This document shows, piece by piece, positions 12,396-33,132 of a DNA stretch of 64,000 nt (within the stretch, counting starts at the first letter, position 1; each line of letters begins with the position of its first letter). The DNA is taken from assembly GCA_041287245.1 (NCBI GenBank), contig JBEULP010000062.1, positions 1 to 64,000 on the forward strand, in the 5' to 3' direction. Position numbers and translations under genes: made by a program. The notes beneath the pieces are model-generated. The model saw only the letters and a program-made list of their open reading frames with translations. It had not been told where the DNA came from and did no database searches. The DNA is from Infirmifilum sp. GTDB lineage: Archaea; Thermoproteota; Thermoprotei; Thermofilales; Thermofilaceae.

Positions 12396-13333
12396 TTGTC
12401 GTTGGCGGAGGCCTCTCAGGCCTCTCCCTGGCTGCGGAGCTCGGCAATGCTATTGTGGTGGAGACGAGGGACAATGTGGGTGGCTTCTTCGCAAATGACG
12501 AGCTGCCTGTTAACGGTGTGGCTGGTCGCCAGCTTGTCCAGTCACTCGCCTCTAAGGTTAAAGCGCTTACAAGGCTTACTGCGTTCCAGGTGGAGCAGGG
12601 GGGCGTGTGGGTAGTAGGGGAGGAAGGGGCAAAGCTGCTCAGAGGTCTGGTGGTAGGCGCGACGGGTTTCAGAGAGAAGACGGCGGTTGAGCTCGGGATA
12701 ACAGGCTATAGGCCTGCCGGGATGTGGTACTTGACTGCTGCCTGGGATCTGGTCAACATGGGGTACTCGCTTGGTAGCAGCGTGCTGGTCTACGGGCTAA
12801 ACCACTTCTCTCTCGCGCTTGTACAGAAGCTGCGCGGAAAGGCTGACCGAGTGTACATAGCCTACGATGAGCCTTCGCTGGTACACGCGCCCGAGGTGGC
12901 GGTGGAGATGGGCGCGGAGGTTTTGAAGGGTAGGGTTAAGCGTATCGAGGGATTAAGTAGGGTTGAGAGGGTTAAGGGGGTGTTCGGGGAGCTGAGGGTA
13001 GATTCCCTCGTCCTAGCGGTGCCGGCGCCATGGAACCCCCTTGGCTCCGAGATGCTAGCTGGAAACGCCGCAATAGTCATAGAGGATCCCTCCAGGGTGG
13101 TTGAGCTCTCAAGGATAATTGCCCAGTCCTTGAGGGCTGGGGGCGAGGCTGCGGAGGTTCTTTCAAGCGCACCTGTATACCCGAGACGGGTTCCGTGGAG
13201 CGTCGGTAGAACAATGGTTGCAGCGCCGAGGGGTGCCAGGATAAGGATAGGTGACAGGGTCGTGGAGGCCGAGGAGCCCTACCCTGTGGTTGAAGTGCCT
13301 CGTGAGAGGAAAGTACGCATAGAGGTCGTTTAG
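12377..13333 (+). CDS. FAD/NAD(P)-binding oxidoreductase, probable partner subunit of the GlpA-like enzyme
   Basis: GGGLSG, ATGFRE, GITGYRPAG; overlaps the upstream gene. Confidence 0.7.
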   Translation: MAGQEVVVVGGGLSGLSLAAELGNAIVVETRDNVGGFFANDELPVNGVAGRQLVQSLASKVKALTRLTAFQVEQGGVWVVGEEGAKLLRGLVVGATGFREKTAVELGITGYRPAGMWYLTAAWDLVNMGYSLGSSVLVYGLNHFSLALVQKLRGKADRVYIAYDEPSLVHAPEVAVEMGAEVLKGRVKRIEGLSRVERVKGVFGELRVDSLVLAVPAPWNPLGSEMLAGNAAIVIEDPSRVVELSRIIAQSLRAGGEAAEVLSSAPVYPRRVPWSVGRTMVAAPRGARIRIGDRVVEAEEPYPVVEVPRERKVRIEVV

Positions 13334-21161: not shown

Positions 21162-21644
21162 TTATATTAACCCCTCGAGAGCCTGAAGAGCCTCCTCCAT
21201 CCAGTTCTCAATCTCGACAACCCTCCCGCACCCAGAAAGCTTTACACGGGGCCTGACGCCCCAGTTCATTTCGACCAGCAGCCCGTACAGCGCCGCCTGA
21301 ACGACCTCGAACCTCCGGAACCCTCCATAACTTTTCAGCTCAACAACCTCCCGGGGGAGACCCTCGACGAACAATACCTGGTCTGCCACCCCGTAGAGCC
21401 AGCCGAACCGAAACCTCCAGGCGAGTGGTAGAGGTGTTGATGCTATCTTCTCGCTCAGTACGAGGCTTAAGTCCCCCCAGAAACGCTCGTGCAGGTAGCG
21501 CCCCTCCGCGGCGCCTCTGCCCCTGCCTCTCCGGTACCTTCCAGCTACCTGGGTTACCGTATATTTCCTCTCATGGGAAGCTAACGCGCGCTCGAAGCGT
21601 TGTAGGGATTGGGATAGGAGCGAGTTGACTATGCTACTTCGCAT
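21162..21644 (-). CDS. PD-(D/E)XK nuclease, RecB/Cas4-like, without Fe-S cysteines
   Basis: GRYLH, GVAD, VELK, QAALY motifs I-IV; start assumed at ATG 21644, overlapping the radA-like stop. Confidence 0.72.
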   Translation of the reverse strand: MRSSIVNSLLSQSLQRFERALASHERKYTVTQVAGRYRRGRGRGAAEGRYLHERFWGDLSLVLSEKIASTPLPLAWRFRFGWLYGVADQVLFVEGLPREVVELKSYGGFRRFEVVQAALYGLLVEMNWGVRPRVKLSGCGRVVEIENWMEEALQALEGLI

Positions 21645-22590
21645 CGTGTAGACCGTCATCCTCTATTCTGAACTCCGCACTAACCCCCTTGGCGAGCCGG
21701 GGGCTGTCGAGAACCTCTACGAGGAAGCTATCCCCGGTCTTCTTCATTAGGAAGCGGTGTGTACTCGCGTGCGCTATGATGTTCCCACCCGCGGGCAGCT
21801 TAACCGCGACACCCCACGCGCTGGGAACGCTAACAACCTGGTTCGTGATGACAGCTACAAGGCTGTAGAGCCTGGAGAGCCTCTTAATCCAGTCGAGCAT
21901 ATAGTTGATCCGCTGCTGCCTCATCGCTAGCCTCTCCCGCCCGCGGAACTGAGCCCTGTAGAGAGCTATAACCGAATCTATGACTACAAGCCTCGCATCA
22001 TTCTTCAGGTACTTCGACAATTCCCTCACCACAAATTCTTCAAGCTCGTCGACGCTGAGCGGCCGTACAACATATATGTTCGCCAGGGGGTCTTCAACTC
22101 CAAACCTCTTAGCTATAGCCTCAACCCTCTCAGGGCTAAACGTCCCCTCAGTGTCCACGTAGACTGCAGAGCCCCCCAGCCCGCCGTGCGATGGGGACAG
22201 CTGAACCGTGACTGCCAGCTGGTGGCAGAGCTGTGTCTTACCACTCCCAAACTCACCGGCAAACTCGTAGATATCGTAGGCAGTCAACCCGCCCCCGAGG
22301 AGGGAGTCTATGGAGCTAACCCCGGTTGTAAGCGAATCGCGCTGCCTAAGCATCGAGGCATACTCCTTCCCGCTTATAGCCTTAGCCTCCCAGCCTATAA
22401 TCCTCCTAGCAGTCCTTACAATCCTGAAGGCTCTCTCGAAGTCGATTCCAGCCATCTCCTCCAGCTCCTCAGGATTGAAGAGCACGAGGTCTTCCAGTGT
22501 TTCAATGCCCGCTGCCTTCAGCCTGGCCACCGTAACCTTGCCGATCCCCTCCTCATGCAAGAGCTCGTCAACGCTGTGCACCGGCATCAC
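21634..22590 (-). CDS. RadA/Rad51-like recombinase, divergent paralog with N-terminal HhH domain
   Basis: GIGKVT HhH, GEFGSGKTQ Walker A, DTEGTF, VIDS Walker B, TNQV, GGNIIAHAST. Confidence 0.88.
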   Translation of the reverse strand: MMPVHSVDELLHEEGIGKVTVARLKAAGIETLEDLVLFNPEELEEMAGIDFERAFRIVRTARRIIGWEAKAISGKEYASMLRQRDSLTTGVSSIDSLLGGGLTAYDIYEFAGEFGSGKTQLCHQLAVTVQLSPSHGGLGGSAVYVDTEGTFSPERVEAIAKRFGVEDPLANIYVVRPLSVDELEEFVVRELSKYLKNDARLVVIDSVIALYRAQFRGRERLAMRQQRINYMLDWIKRLSRLYSLVAVITNQVVSVPSAWGVAVKLPAGGNIIAHASTHRFLMKKTGDSFLVEVLDSPRLAKGVSAEFRIEDDGLHDAK

Positions 22591-23496: not shown

Positions 23497-23519
23497 AAGG
23501 ATTATTGGATTGTTTATGT

Positions 23520-23553
23520 ATAAATATGTTATTATTGAGTATAATCTTGTTAT
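23520..23553. promoter_or_regulatory. Two 13-bp palindromic boxes, 21 bp apart, over the wHTH operon promoter
   Basis: ATAAATATGTTAT (23520-23532) and ATAATCTTGTTAT (23541-23553); the first overlaps the minus-strand TATA-like TTTATACA about 25 nt before the start. Confidence 0.6.
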
Positions 23554-23605
23554 TGTTAGTAGCCGGCGAAAATAACATTATAACGACCCCCCTCTTTAAC
23601 CCGTT

Positions 23606-25416: not shown

Positions 25417-26799
25417 TTGAAGCTGGGTAAAATTCCTCTGAGGAGACTTAAGGAGATCTTAGAGAAAGCAGGAGTTACGGTCACTCTCGACTCAAATCCT
25501 CTTGACCAAGATACGGTTGTATCCACAAACCCCGCGATCGGCGTCCCCCTAAGGGCCCTTGGCTTCTTCGCTTTTCACTACACTGCGACAAACATCGCTG
25601 TCTCTCACGCTAGACCTGTTTATGCCACTCTATCAATACTCGCCCCTCCTGACACTGGTGATGAAGAGCTCGAAGCTATACTCAAGTCTTTCCTGAGAGA
25701 GTGTGAGAAATACGGGGTTCGCCTGGTAGGGGGTCACACTGCGCGATATGAAGGCATAGAGTACCCCCTTGCTGTCTCCACAATACTGGGTAAGAAGACA
25801 CGCGAGAGGGAAAAACCCTCCCCCGGCGACATCATCTATCTAGTCGGCAGGGTTGGCGCTGAGACTGCATGGCTACTGGGGAAAGAGGTGCCCCTAGAGG
25901 AGCTGTCTCCTCTAGATGAAGCCCTCCGTCTCCAAACGGTAACAAGCGTCAAGTTGATGCACGACGTATCGGAGGGAGGTATCCTGGGAGCCCTTTTAGA
26001 GGTCTCTCACCAGTACCACGTTAAGATCAAAGTTACGGCTCGAAGTATAGAAACTTATCCTGGGTTTCCAGAGGGCTACGAGCCTCTAGCCTCACCCACA
26101 TACGGCGCCCTCATCGTCTTCACCTCTCCCGCAGAGCCGCTCGAGGGCTACTGTGATGAAAGGGGCGTCACGTGCACACGGCTAGGTTTAGTGGAAGCCC
26201 CCGGGGTCGGGGTCGAGTATAAGGCGCAGCTCCTAACCGAGACGCCTGAGACGCCCCTAGTGGAGCTATACAACCCCTACACGCCTGGGAGCTGGGAGCC
26301 GGCGCAGGTTCTCCTGGCCGCCAAGAAGTTCGTCAGCATACCGGGGGTTGAGAGGATAATCCCAGAGGTTGGGACGAACATAGCTTATTCAAAGTTTAAA
26401 CCCGAGAGACCTGAGGACGTGGCTGCTATAGAAGGCAGAATAGTGAGGACCTCGCGTGGGGCGCGGATCTGCGGCTTTCCAGCTTACGGGGCGTCTCGGC
26501 ACCTGGCTCGAGTCATAATTGAGGCGTCGAAGCACGACGAGAACCTCAGGTCAGCTATAAACTTGAAGCCCGAGCCCAGGCTTATTGAAAGGCTTAGACT
26601 TCTAGGTGTAGACGTCCGTGAGATAAAGGATTTTTCCTCGTTTTGCCCTGTCAGCGAGGCCCTGGCCAGGGGCTCCAGGGGGCAAGCGTTCTACTACCGT
26701 GACCTTCCCAACCTAGAGCCTTCACTGGTTGTGCTGGCTGAAAACCCGCATGTCCTCGTTGAGACCGTCAGGAAGGCCCTAGCCGAGGACCTTCATTAA
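25417..26799 (+). CDS. AIR synthase (PurM/ThiL/HypE)-like domain fused to a ThiN-type thiamine-phosphate synthase domain
   Basis: GGHT and MHDVSEGG in the N-terminal part; IPEVGTNIAY, DVAAIEGRI, GASRHLAR, AINLK in the C-terminal part. Confidence 0.78.
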   Translation: MKLGKIPLRRLKEILEKAGVTVTLDSNPLDQDTVVSTNPAIGVPLRALGFFAFHYTATNIAVSHARPVYATLSILAPPDTGDEELEAILKSFLRECEKYGVRLVGGHTARYEGIEYPLAVSTILGKKTREREKPSPGDIIYLVGRVGAETAWLLGKEVPLEELSPLDEALRLQTVTSVKLMHDVSEGGILGALLEVSHQYHVKIKVTARSIETYPGFPEGYEPLASPTYGALIVFTSPAEPLEGYCDERGVTCTRLGLVEAPGVGVEYKAQLLTETPETPLVELYNPYTPGSWEPAQVLLAAKKFVSIPGVERIIPEVGTNIAYSKFKPERPEDVAAIEGRIVRTSRGARICGFPAYGASRHLARVIIEASKHDENLRSAINLKPEPRLIERLRLLGVDVREIKDFSSFCPVSEALARGSRGQAFYYRDLPNLEPSLVVLAENPHVLVETVRKALAEDLH

Positions 26800-26944: not shown

Positions 26945-27667
26945 ATGGCGAAGCTACTATTCCAGTATGACAGCTACATCAAAGAGTTTGAGGCTACGGT
27001 GACGCGCGTATCAGGCGAGAAGGTATTCCTTGACCAGACAGCCTTCCACCCGGGACCAAGCGGTGGCCTAGACACTGATACCGGCTGGCTTATCCTGCCC
27101 GACGGGCAACGCGTTGAGGTCGTTAAAGCCGTAGAGGAAGGTGGCGATATAGCCCACGTGTTGTCCTCGCAAGCCAACATACCCCAAGGCGCCAGGGTAA
27201 GGGGCTTAATCAACTGGGATAGGAGGTACAGGATGATGAGGCTGCACACAGCCAGCCACGTCTTGGCATCCGTCCTCTACAAAAAGTATGGTGCTCTCGT
27301 AACAGGGGGTCACATAGAACCTGAGGGTGCGCGCGACGACTTCGACCTGCCTGGAGCCGTAGACTGGAAAGCGGCCTTAGCCGAGGCTATAAGAGAGTCA
27401 AACGAGATCATTAGGAGGTGCGTAGAGGTCAAGGTGTACTGGCTCAGGCGCGAAGAGGCTTTGAAAATACCGGGCATCGTTAAGCTTGCCGGAAGGTTAC
27501 CTCCCGAGGTGGAGGAGATAAGGATAGTTGAGATCCCGGATGTAGACATACAGGCGGACGGCGGGCCACACGTTAAAAACACGTGCGAGATCGGGGAGAT
27601 ACTCCTAGTGAAGACCGAAAGCAAGGGGGCTAAACGGAAGAGAGTTTATTATACTCTAAATCCCTAG
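26945..27667 (+). CDS. alaX: Alanyl-tRNA editing protein (AlaX-M type)
   Basis: DSY, LDQTAFHP, MRLHTASH, ADGGPHV. Confidence 0.9.
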   Translation: MAKLLFQYDSYIKEFEATVTRVSGEKVFLDQTAFHPGPSGGLDTDTGWLILPDGQRVEVVKAVEEGGDIAHVLSSQANIPQGARVRGLINWDRRYRMMRLHTASHVLASVLYKKYGALVTGGHIEPEGARDDFDLPGAVDWKAALAEAIRESNEIIRRCVEVKVYWLRREEALKIPGIVKLAGRLPPEVEEIRIVEIPDVDIQADGGPHVKNTCEIGEILLVKTESKGAKRKRVYYTLNP

Positions 27668-27677
27668 CACTTCTAGT

Positions 27678-27774
27678 ATAACATTGTTATACTTTATATT
27701 AACAATGTTATATTTTTCAAAAATAATGTTTTGCTACAACATACTAAGGTTATATTCAAATATAACATAGTTAT
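27678..27774. repeat. Array of five 13-bp palindromic boxes (consensus ATAACAnTGTTAT) at exact 21-bp period
   Basis: ATAACATTGTTAT 27678, TTAACAATGTTAT 27699, AAAATAATGTTTT 27720, ATACTAAGGTTAT 27741, ATAACATAGTTAT 27762. Confidence 0.8.
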
Positions 27775-27816
27775 TACAAAAATCTTCGTTAGTATGGTTT
27801 TTATAGCCGGAAGTAG

Positions 27817-28503
27817 TTGGAAAATGTGTCCAGCGAGATAGCCCACCTATTCTCGAGGCACGCCGGCGAATACGATTCCTGGTACGAAACCCCTTCCGGC
27901 AGGGTTGTGCTTGAAGCCGAGGCTCGGCTCTTAGACAAGGTGCTTCCACTTGGAATAGGCTTAGACTTGGGCGCGGGGACAGGCGTTTTCGCCGAAAGGC
28001 TCTCCCGTACCAGGGAAATTGTGTGTCTCGACCCGTCCCCCGGGATGCTAGAGCGGGCTCGAGGAAGATGCCTGCACATGGTTCTAGGTGTAGCCGAGTT
28101 CCCACCATTTCGACAAGGCTCCCTTGACTTCATATACATGGTTACCGTCTTAGAGTTCCTCCAAGAACCTCTCCAGGCCCTAAGCGCGGCCAAACAGCTA
28201 CTAAAGCCCACGGCTGTCCTCGCGATACTCTCAGTCGAGAAGAATAGCAGTTGGGGTAGGCTATACCAGGAGTTAGCTGCCGAGAATAAGGATCCCATCC
28301 TAGCAGCCGGGAGATTCTACTCGGAGGGTGAGGTTGAAGGGCTCCTCGGCAGAGCGGGTTACCACGTATACGCTAGGGGCGCCACCCTCGACTACGAGCC
28401 GTTAACGGTCCCGGATAAGCCGCCGAAGATCTACGTAAATGAGCGCTGCCCTTCATGTGGCGTTTTCCTCCTCCTTGCCGCTCCCCCTCCTAGGCAACCC
28501 TAA
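27817..28503 (+). CDS. Class I SAM-dependent methyltransferase
   Basis: YDSWY, LDLGAGTG, LDPSPGML. Confidence 0.88.
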   Translation: MENVSSEIAHLFSRHAGEYDSWYETPSGRVVLEAEARLLDKVLPLGIGLDLGAGTGVFAERLSRTREIVCLDPSPGMLERARGRCLHMVLGVAEFPPFRQGSLDFIYMVTVLEFLQEPLQALSAAKQLLKPTAVLAILSVEKNSSWGRLYQELAAENKDPILAAGRFYSEGEVEGLLGRAGYHVYARGATLDYEPLTVPDKPPKIYVNERCPSCGVFLLLAAPPPRQP

Positions 28504-30429: not shown

Positions 30430-31497
30430 GTCAGGAGAGGTGTAGACGAGCCTTTTTATTCATCTGCATCCAGTAGAAGTTAAAGAGGGGGTTGAGGCTG
30501 CGTGATTTTTCCACAATCTTAGCCCACGTCCTGTCAAGCCTGAGCCCCTCTTTAAAAGCACGCTCCGTCAGGGCGTAGAGGGCTTCGCGTGAAGCGGTTC
30601 CGGCAAGGTATTCTCTCCGGAGCTTTATCGCCTCTCTGACGAGCTGCTCCTCAACCTCTTTAATCTCGCCAAAAATTTGGGCTGCGTATCTCGGATAGGA
30701 AGCTAGAAGCTTCCTATGCAGTTCCTCATGGATCCACCAGAAAGCCTGTGGGTCATAGCTGTCAGTAGGGCTTGGGCCGAGGTCGGGGAGGCCTGACTCG
30801 ATGAACACCGGCTTATACAGTGATATGCACGGGCTAGACGTGCCCGTGGCGAATATTATGGGGGTTTTCTCGTAGAGGAACGCTATGACGGAGCCTGCTG
30901 TCTGGCTGGGCCTAGTAAGCCCTCCGGCGTGCATGCATATATCTCTCATCGAGCCTCTCGCTGGGGAGTAGCCCTCGTCCCCGGCGTGGCTACGCATTAG
31001 TGAGCTTATCTTCTCGAAGTCCAACCGGCCCGCGTTTTTCTCGAGGAAGCTCTGTGTAAACCTTTGCCTCTCCACGCCTTTGGCTATCCTGGTATAAAGG
31101 AAGTCTGAGAAGTGGCCTGAGAAGTCGAGCTCTTCTTTCTCGAGGTGTTTCTTCTCGAGATACTCAAGCAGGCTCCTGCTAACCTTATCCCAACGGCTAT
31201 GTATGGTTAAGGCGTTTGAAATACTTCTTACACTCTTCACCTTCTCCGCAACCCAGTAGGGGCCAGCCGTCTCGAGAACCCAGGCCTCGTTCGGGTCTGC
31301 TATGATAAAGGAGTTGTGGTAGTAGAGCTTACCTGATCTGCTGCAATTCCCTCCCTGTCCGTACTCCTCCAGGAGCCCCGTGACAACGCTTAGTGCCTCC
31401 GCAGCACTCCTAGACCTCTCCAAGCCTAGGCGCACGAGATCCATCCCTGTTAAGCCTGTTTTCCGGTAGGGCAGCTTCGTAAAAACCGCCTCGTTAA

Positions 31498-32848
31498 CAT
31501 AAGCTGAAAGCCTCGCCCCTTTAGGGCGGGGGTGAGTAGAAACTCTTATAAACCTCTCTTGGTTTGTTGTCTCCGGGGGGCATAGAGTTCTACGAGGGCA
31601 TAAAGAGGAGAGGTAGGGGTGTTCTTTGTGGGCGATGAGGGTTTCCTAACCCTGACTGTCGGGGTGAGGGTTAGCCCCGAGCCCGAGGTGGTAGAACTCT
31701 TGAAGAGGTATAGGTCTGCCCTGTGGCACTCCATAAGGGCTATACACGGCCACGTGGTGAGGAGCAACTTGAAGAGGGCGCCATCCCTCTCAACCACGCA
31801 CAGGCTTCTCTACAACGACCTCAGGGAGGGGTTCGGCCTCCCGTCGAGAATCGCAATTGATTGTTACAGGGAGGCCCTGGCAATCTACAAGTCTTGGCTT
31901 AACAATAGGGACAGAGGCAGACTGCCAACTCCGAGAAAACTAAGGATGTGGCTTACGCACGGGCAAGGGTATAGAATTAGAGACGGCTTCATCGAGATCA
32001 TCGGTGGTATCAGGCTCAAAATCGTTGGTTGGGATAGGAGATATGATTCTTACGAGAATAGAGAGGCTAGGCTTGTGTTCAGAGGAGGCAAAATGTTTCT
32101 AATGGTGGTGAAGAGGATCCCGAAGCCCGAGAAGATAAAGTCCTCAGGAGTTCTCGCGGTCGACGTGAACGAGAAGAAGATCGTGTTCGGAAATAGCGGG
32201 GCCTCCAAGTCTATTGATACGCCTGTGGGGAAGGCCCTCCACTACAAAAGGCTCGCTGAGGAGTTGCAGAGAAAGTACTCGAACGGCAAGTACAGGCCCT
32301 GGCTGGCGAGGAGGGGGATTCGCGAGAGAATAAAGAGTTTCGATAGAAAGGCTAGAAACGCCGTCGAGGACTGGGCTAGGAAGACGGCCCTAGAGATCGT
32401 GAGAGAGGCCGAGAGGCACTCCTACGCGGTCGCGAGGGAGGGCTTGAACGGACTGGTGGAGTCCTTGAGGAAGCTGCCGAAGGATCATAGGGTGAAGCTG
32501 ATGATACTGTCGTACAAAAGGCTGGGATACTGGATCGACTGGCAGGCCTCGAAGCACGGCGTGCCCGTCGTAGTCGTGGATCCGAGGAACACCTCATCGA
32601 CATGCCCAAGGTGCGGGTCGAAACTGAGAGGAAGCGGCTACAGGAGGCTGAGATGCCCGAGATGCGGGTTTGAGGCGGACAGAGATTTCATAGCGCTGCT
32701 GAACATCGAGAAAAAAGCCCTACAAGAAATGGGAGGAGCTCTGACCCCCTCGACTGCCCCGCAGATGAAAGATGTAAACCCGAATAGATGCCGGGGAACC
32801 TCCCCGCCCCGAAGGAACCCTCGCCCTTCAGGGCGGGGAGGAGGTCAG
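31498..32848 (+). mobile_element. IS200/IS605-family, IS1341-type (tnpB only) element, 1351 bp, no target duplication
   Basis: Left-end hairpin AAAG-CCTCGCCCCTTTAGGGCGGGGG; right end GAAC-CCTCGCCCTTCAGGGCGGGG-AGGAGGTCAG; removal restores the host frame. Confidence 0.9.
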
Positions 32849-32872
32849 CGATTGCGACGCCGTACTCGTTAA
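31619..32872 (+). CDS. tnpB: TnpB RNA-guided endonuclease
   Basis: RuvC-I LAVDVN, RuvC-II VAREGL, Zn finger CPRC..CPRC, RuvC-III DRD; the ORF reads through the right end. Confidence 0.92.
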   Translation: MFFVGDEGFLTLTVGVRVSPEPEVVELLKRYRSALWHSIRAIHGHVVRSNLKRAPSLSTTHRLLYNDLREGFGLPSRIAIDCYREALAIYKSWLNNRDRGRLPTPRKLRMWLTHGQGYRIRDGFIEIIGGIRLKIVGWDRRYDSYENREARLVFRGGKMFLMVVKRIPKPEKIKSSGVLAVDVNEKKIVFGNSGASKSIDTPVGKALHYKRLAEELQRKYSNGKYRPWLARRGIRERIKSFDRKARNAVEDWARKTALEIVREAERHSYAVAREGLNGLVESLRKLPKDHRVKLMILSYKRLGYWIDWQASKHGVPVVVVDPRNTSSTCPRCGSKLRGSGYRRLRCPRCGFEADRDFIALLNIEKKALQEMGGALTPSTAPQMKDVNPNRCRGTSPPRRNPRPSGRGGGQRLRRRTR

Positions 32873-33132
32873 CACCCATCTCCGCCCCCCACATCCACCA
32901 GGGGCGGGATAGAAACACCGCATAGGTCTCTTCTACCTGGGGGACGCGTATGTAAGTGCAGGATACGTATTCCTCCGAGTGGCGCCGCCGGGGCACCACC
33001 TCCAGAACTTGGGCCTCGTTTGGTTCTCGGTCGCTGTTCTTGGCAAAGATAGAAACCTTCTCGGACGTGTACTCTTTCAAGGCGATGATAGTGTCACACA
33101 CAGGTGCTGATACAACCACCGGAAATTTATAC

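Follow-up and report, generated by a model that had tools for sequence, protein, structure and literature searches.

In ParMRC, parC is an array of repeated sites lying over the system's own promoter, and ParR is a ribbon-helix-helix protein. Scattered palindromic sites characterize the SlmA/SBS and Noc/NBS systems, in which the bound protein acts on the division apparatus, SlmA being an FtsZ-directed nucleoid occlusion protein. These have many single sites and FtsZ or the membrane as target, whereas the genome of the hot-spring archaeon Infirmifilum sp. under study here (G000; G001-G007 denote same-genus genomes) has few phased arrays and actin as the predicted target.

ParR, a small protein that binds DNA, carries at its C-terminus a peptide that fits the hydrophobic groove of an actin, ParM, and the corresponding site on crenactin is used by arcadin-2 of Pyrobaculum calidifontis, the last 17 residues of which bind the crenactin groove at 31 nM and depolymerise filaments in vitro (PMC5173319). 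In arcadin-2 a conserved C-terminal tryptophan-bearing helix follows an unstructured linker, and the available text of the same paper describes no DNA site for the protein (PMC5173319). AspA, of the AspA-ParB-ParA system of pNOB8, is a dimeric winged-helix centromere binder that recognizes a 23-bp palindrome lying ahead of its gene; it acts through ParB and ParA, spreading from one site (PMC5120986). In SegAB of Sulfolobales, a site-specific archaeal protein recognizes palindromes that lie upstream of the operon and have been proposed as centromere analogues; its motor is a Walker-type ParA, and the sites are described beside the operon. Otherwise, reviews present archaeal DNA segregation as little known and assign to Thermoproteales-type cells, which are without FtsZ and ESCRT-III, an undiscovered division mechanism, probably with crenactin (PMC7613921, PMC7617429). 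Thermofilum adornatum is reported to have juxtaposed chromosome arms (3C-seq preprint, bioRxiv) and, according to a review, has no clear SMC complex.

The 64,000-nucleotide stretch of Infirmifilum DNA analysed here, referred to as the window, resembles ParMRC in having an array of repeated sites and further sites over the promoter of the putative adaptor, and would do so in the adaptor too if this small protein, as predicted, binds DNA and fits its C-terminal peptide into the actin groove. The closest homologues, named as Infirmifilum and Thermofilum, place the organism in the Thermofilaceae. The genome contains an actin-family NTPase (crenactin) and arrays of repeated predicted adaptor sites, but actin, adaptor and centromere do not share one locus: the actin gene lies elsewhere and the operon is shared with RadA paralogues. 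It differs further from ParMRC in being chromosomal with several arrays per chromosome, in its palindromes at 21 bp and in its winged helix. The arrays and adaptor would work like ParMRC but fall outside it on gene linkage. With respect to arcadin-2, the difference is that the tail is attached to a winged helix whose gene lies away from the arcade cluster; as in AspA, there is a winged helix, an inferred dimer and a palindrome upstream of the protein's own gene, but the gene content of the operon includes no parAB. A full-text literature search, mostly of papers open without subscription, found no published account of these arrays, of the winged-helix protein or of tail-bearing DNA-binding proteins; the literature covered for novelty included, in part, PMC11946384, PMC3607249, PMC13722703, bioRxiv 2022.04.06.487207 and bioRxiv 2021.04.30.439615.

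The five-box array

The first-pass annotation had described five boxes at an exact 21-bp period, 8 nt apart, in an AT-rich gap between alaX and a methyltransferase gene, the first box extending to a perfect inverted repeat. Starts, spacing and inverted repeat were all confirmed (Table 1), and the gap measures 149 bp with 77% A+T, rising to 82% over 100 bp at the array, among the top 0.02% of segments of that length. Boxes 1-5 have 0, 1, 3, 3 and 1 mismatches to the 13-bp core ATAACAnTGTTAT, boxes 3 and 4 being degenerate, and between 27600 and 27830 there is no further site with four or fewer mismatches. A weight matrix trained on 41 boxes, all from other loci, scores the five at 21.8, 12.6, 11.1, 11.6 and 14.0 bits. 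Their sum of 71 bits was matched in none of 3000 dinucleotide shuffles, even with any period of 15-30 allowed (best 8.1), so that shuffled AT-rich DNA does not yield the equally phased matches which the annotation had named as grounds for dropping its reading. Tandem Repeats Finder did not report the array. It is unchanged in contigs from both of two sequencing runs, which belong to one study that is possibly the source of this DNA.

The methyltransferase gene has its own TATA-like element (~27798-27805) outside the array. Its position behind alaX is conserved in all seven same-genus genomes, with gaps of ~30-200 bp, and in none of these gaps is there a box with three or fewer mismatches. An operator of the methyltransferase gene is thereby rejected, in line with the earlier remark that five sites seemed too many for one such promoter. 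The array is also absent from 17 of 17 distant metagenome loci, but these are at most ~56% identical and hence uninformative for the species.

Table 1. Positions of the arrays, the promoter pair and the neighbouring genes. Coordinates refer to the window unless a contig (C) is given.
Feature	Position	Strand	Remarks
Five-box array	27675..27777	none	13-bp cores at 27678, 27699, 27720, 27741, 27762; 19-bp sites AnnATAACAnTGTTATnnT; period 21 bp
alaX (AlaX-like, tRNA_SAD)	26945..27667	+	stop codon 11 bp before first box
Class I methyltransferase	27817..28503	+	position behind alaX shared by relatives that have no array
Box pair	23517..23556	none	cores 23520 and 23541, 57 and 36 bp before winged-helix start codon
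Winged-helix protein, 123 residues	23125..23496	-	disordered linker and arcadin-2-like C-terminal tail, residues ~100-121
Conserved operon protein, 186 residues	22568..23128	-	no Pfam or NCBIfam family
Second RadA (RadA2), full-length	21634..22590	-	above PRK04301 cut-off
165-residue gene, operon end	21162..21659	-	putative nuclease, Cas4/PD-(D/E)XK-like by eye; family search without match
Six-box array	G000 C18:1727-1845		between converging cas6 and csx1
Long array	G000 C49:12453-12549		between tRNA and dnaG

A family of arrays

A genome-wide weight-matrix scan for phased boxes, a check proposed in the first-pass annotation, recovered two further long arrays in G000 besides that of the window, and one box pair at 23520/23541. 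Each of the 13 box pairs spaced at 20-23 bp in this genome is part either of one of the three long arrays or of the promoter site, and 12 of them are at exactly 21 bp. Arrays are present elsewhere in all seven same-genus genomes, at 2-7 each (seven in G001, five in G006, three in each of G002, G003, G004 and G007, and two, one of them weak, in G005), and with G000 therefore in 8/8 genomes of the genus. Reversed-pattern controls gave 0-1 hits per genome with the two-box patterns and 0-3 with the three-box one. Hits that failed the weight matrix were dropped (four weak ones in G005, two in G007, and eight in G014, G026, G027 and G032), and that at 726 kb in G005 was retained as a weak three-box array. 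The expectation of conservation in relatives is thus borne out for a genome-wide family of elements and contradicted at this locus, and with like arrays at unrelated places the proposal of a cooperative protein-loading platform holds.

The consensus AnnATAACAnTGTTATnnT summarizes 142 boxes, drawn from 37 of the 38 loci. The arrays are built of pairs at 21 bp, whose outer and inner half-sites show equal conservation (4.6 of 5, 25 pairs). The separation between one pair and the next is 22, 32, 42-44, 54-55 or 66 bp, close to whole helical turns, with a phase concentration of 0.91-0.93 at 10.5-11 bp. Single boxes outside arrays are modestly enriched over control, with no enrichment in G010. Long arrays in the five complete genomes seem more evenly spread than random, but the genomes are not independent and the combined p shifts from 0.002 to 0.18 with inclusion choices, so that even spacing is a weak hint.

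A gene 3' end lies within 50 bp of 19 of the 27 arrays examined (mechanical ORFs, hand count), and a divergent gap is possible for at most two of the 27, compared with 141 of 407 G000 gaps of 95-400 bp. The count covers 27 of 30 catalogued arrays, the three dnaG arrays of relatives being left out, and some of its loci are common to several genomes. Genes flanking the arrays have no common function; several arrays border variable regions containing, for example, csx1, a methylase or toxin-antitoxin genes. The conserved array before dnaG is an exception: it directly adjoins the promoter of an RNA gene. This conserved structured RNA of ~110 nt (L034:1353-1465; G000 C49, ~12575-12690) is present in genera g1 and g4, with compensatory changes in 12 of 33 predicted pairs among eight sequences and no Rfam match, and in G000, G005, G006 and G007 its promoter is where a box array ends.

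Outside the genus, genus g4 has the promoter pair, and G008 has an array of three boxes. The three g4 genomes, all incomplete, have 0-1 match as scattered arrays and the promoter pair only, and none of five genomes of genus g9 matches the motif. A scan of genomes of all species for the box pair gave at least 117 loci, among the matches listed nearly all bacterial and none from Thermofilaceae, and is uninformative. A Bathyarchaeota contig (L177) has a 21-bp box pair and two more boxes, of 8-18 bits, within 634 bp, which may have arisen by chance in AT-rich sequence or point to a distant relative.

The winged-helix protein and its operon

The promoter pair of the winged-helix gene is the most conserved of the box sites. 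At -57/-36 (±1) it is present in eight of ten genomes of two genera, the remaining two having shifted or single boxes, while none of nine more distant homologues is preceded by such a pair. The nearer box overlaps the TATA-like element of the gene, which lies 4 kb from the window array and heads an operon containing RadA-like genes and no actin gene. The succession winged helix, 186-residue protein, RadA2 is conserved throughout the order. For the 186-residue protein a likeness to the RecA/RadA fold is a lead only; a separate RadA-like gene on contig C25 is 42% identical to RadA2. In G002 and G008, which are 81% and 79% complete and have arrays, the winged-helix gene was not found.

The structure model of the 123-residue protein is a winged helix (pLDDT 81), and its fold matches are generic, of ArsR/MarR type; they include the centromere binders TubR and AspA, the latter at 20-23% identity. 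Sequence searches of solved structures with this protein or with the arcadin-2-position protein described below gave no match, the solved peptide having fewer than 20 residues.

Assignment of the arrays to this protein rests on co-variation. The homologues in G009 and G026 have the same altered recognition helix, judged by eye, and a different promoter palindrome, TCACA-N4-TGTGA. As predicted in advance, arrays of this second motif are present at seven other loci in G009, six of them with four sites arranged as two pairs. There are 17 exact copies in G009 and at most three in each of 119 other genomes, and all three exact copies in G026 precede its own winged-helix homologue. Since the promoter palindrome of G009 is also the motif of its arrays, protein type and array motif co-vary, and the 123-residue protein is likely to be the binder of the array boxes. 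The array gaps of G009 (three divergent, three tandem or unclear, one convergent) are unlike those of the genus of G000. In an exact search, the promoter palindromes of G025 and genus g9 were not repeated elsewhere as arrays. Scattered arrays were thus found in only some of the lineages with the protein and, not having been found in g4, G026, G025 and g9, are not a universal need.

An arcadin-2-like tail

The C-terminal motif of the winged-helix protein recurs at the end of the gene that follows crenactin, in the position of arcadin-2, in the complete arcade cluster of G000. That protein itself has no match to the NCBIfam arcadin-2 model, but in four of four more distant genomes tail-ending ORFs match the model, below its cut-off. 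The crenactin, on contig C49, passes the NF053560 cut-off and matches 4CJ7/5LY3 with E 4e-119; it lies on another contig than the adaptor operon and there is no box pair near its gene. All 73 tail hits place the motif within nine residues of the C-terminus. Their neighbours are crenactin in 10, a RadA paralogue in 22 and neither in 41, in a sample biased by the queries, and the tail is borne by HTH, zinc-finger-like and other small domains. In G005, at 1.38 Mb, further RadA paralogues adjoin tail proteins and an Orc1-like gene.

A complex model of G000 crenactin with residues 88-123 of the winged-helix protein scored 0.90, against 0.01 for the best of three controls. Contacts agree between runs to at least 84%, the partner has a pLDDT of 73 or higher, and the modelled W109 touches crenactin residues 162-168 and 393-406. 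Of 157 solved pairs 116 reached the mark used for such scores, as did two of 215 mismatched pairs, figures that apply roughly here, and the pass may have its source in memory of the solved crenactin-arcadin-2 complex. We consider it very probable that the winged-helix tail binds crenactin.

A second DNA-crenactin adaptor candidate is a protein with HTH, coiled coil and arcadin-2-like tail encoded at G000 C64:15942-16589 (L268) and matched in 36 of the 41 genomes of the order, its gene adjoining dnaG in G024 and G031. As binder of the boxes it was rejected, the box pair being absent from all 30 of its loci examined. The tail is also carried by the 31.5-kb second replicon of G004 and by a related element on contig C26 of G000. 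In these virus- or plasmid-like elements (G000 C26, L341; G004 C2, L327 and L328) the tail-bearing gene stands directly before a shared HTH gene and a gene for an acidic protein, which suggests that mobile elements hook onto host crenactin.

Possible functions of the arrays

We consider the arrays and the winged-helix protein to be, with a probability of about 0.45, a ParR/parC-like tether of the chromosome to crenactin. Very likely, one dimer sits on each box and neighbours 21 bp apart cooperate, with the pair as the unit of binding; the dimers would load along one face of the helix. Four to six of them per ~100 bp would cluster eight to twelve tails, enough for capture of a crenactin filament end, and the captured crenactin would position or separate chromosome copies along the long cell. 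Through the promoter pair, the protein would repress its own operon. Given dimer loading and crenactin binding, a role in tethering is probable.

Such a tether would provide a centromere-like link between chromosome and cytoskeleton in Thermofilaceae. It may be, although we hold this wider reading tentatively, that their chromosome is tied to crenactin through centromere-like arrays and an adaptor, in what would be the first actin-based chromosome positioning in archaea and in a group without known segregation machinery, and that the tail is a portable actin-binding module acquired by many DNA-binding proteins, plasmids and proviruses. Crenactin, the closest prokaryotic relative of eukaryotic actin, would then have as known regulators a whole family of DNA-binding proteins with this tail, where so far there has been one protein. 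The proposal can be tested in vitro with purified components: the site is defined within 100 bp, the candidate binder has 123 residues and a contact with actin is predicted.

Since the tail of arcadin-2 depolymerises crenactin (PMC5173319), occlusion fits as well as tethering in this respect: DNA-bound tails would dissolve crenactin near the chromosome and so keep division off unsegregated DNA, in the manner of SlmA. Sites that are scattered and relocated between species would suit such a function, as would the proposal that crenactin and the arcadins are the division machinery of this group (PMC7617429). We nevertheless judge occlusion unlikely, there being just 2-7 arrays on each chromosome, none of whose regions is clearly devoid of them, and tight phased clusters suggest a built structure over a diffuse inhibitor.

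A little less likely is a repressor of the radA2 operon that senses actin, its activity being set by crenactin monomers, and for which the long arrays would be sinks, roadblocks or occasional operators. The conservation of the promoter pair over a TATA-like element, the occurrence of the promoter site alone in several lineages, the many kinds of DNA-binding domain that bear the tail and the frequent position of G009 arrays between divergent genes could all be read in this way. The placing of most arrays of the genus at promoterless 3' ends could not, and the strict helical phasing of the pairs would be needless in decoys. An ordinary metabolic regulon of the RbkR or ThiR type was rejected, there being no functionally linked promoters and no conservation of loci across species; the consensus given for RbkR in Thermofilum differs from the array box (PMC5397151). 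Two box-like sites 36 bp apart (G000 C29:194647 and 194683; L033:4148-4196), between a ThiR-like gene and an ECF transporter operon labelled by eye, are probably a separate thiamine regulator site.

The company of RadA2 suggests that the arrays might load RadA2, its partner and the nuclease for the pairing of sister chromosomes or recombination. The conserved order of the winged-helix, 186-residue and RadA2 genes and the several arrays next to variable regions agree with loading, but the tail is common to arcadin-2 and to the 41 proteins adjoining neither RadA paralogue nor crenactin, and the complex model favours crenactin; we regard RadA2 loading as decidedly doubtful.

The first-pass annotation had offered a replication origin, a segregation site or an operator array. 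Segregation or anchoring, as in the proposed tether, fits best and an origin worst, no orc1 gene being nearby. In the five complete genomes and G000 no array lies beside any orc1/cdc6 gene, the nearest being at ~35-40 kb, and an Orc1 origin is rejected on account of this position. What we take, from the ORB consensus, to be ORB-like elements stand instead upstream of two of three orc1 genes. Array positions shift between close species, the boxes are palindromes and not direct repeats, the likely binder has one winged helix and ends in a tail of the actin-binding type, and a GC-skew analysis, which had been proposed as a check, shows no switch at the window array. Iteron-type origins are therefore very improbable, despite the high A+T, the few arrays per chromosome and the two arrays near tRNA genes, where crenarchaeal origins often lie (PMC4009838). 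Equally improbable are small mobile-element copies without host function: array presence at a locus differs between species and all nine aligned arrays of G001 and G004 have a common one-directional centre, which points to copying, but among ten contiguous arrays of G000, G005, G006 and G007 the similarity (at most 0.68) does not exceed what the motif alone would give (95th percentile of a motif-only null, 0.68), a conserved core promoter carries the same box, and another motif has the same layout in G009.

Other features of the window

Three further features of the window were noted. A protein encoded at 25417-26799 has an AIR-synthase-like (ThiL/SelD-type) domain fused to a ThiN domain. A coding-like 21/42-bp tandem repeat at 754-906 is unrelated to the array boxes. 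A peptidase-like gene (30431-33119) seems to be interrupted at 31619-32872 by a TnpB-like gene of the IS200/IS605 type, both labelled by eye.
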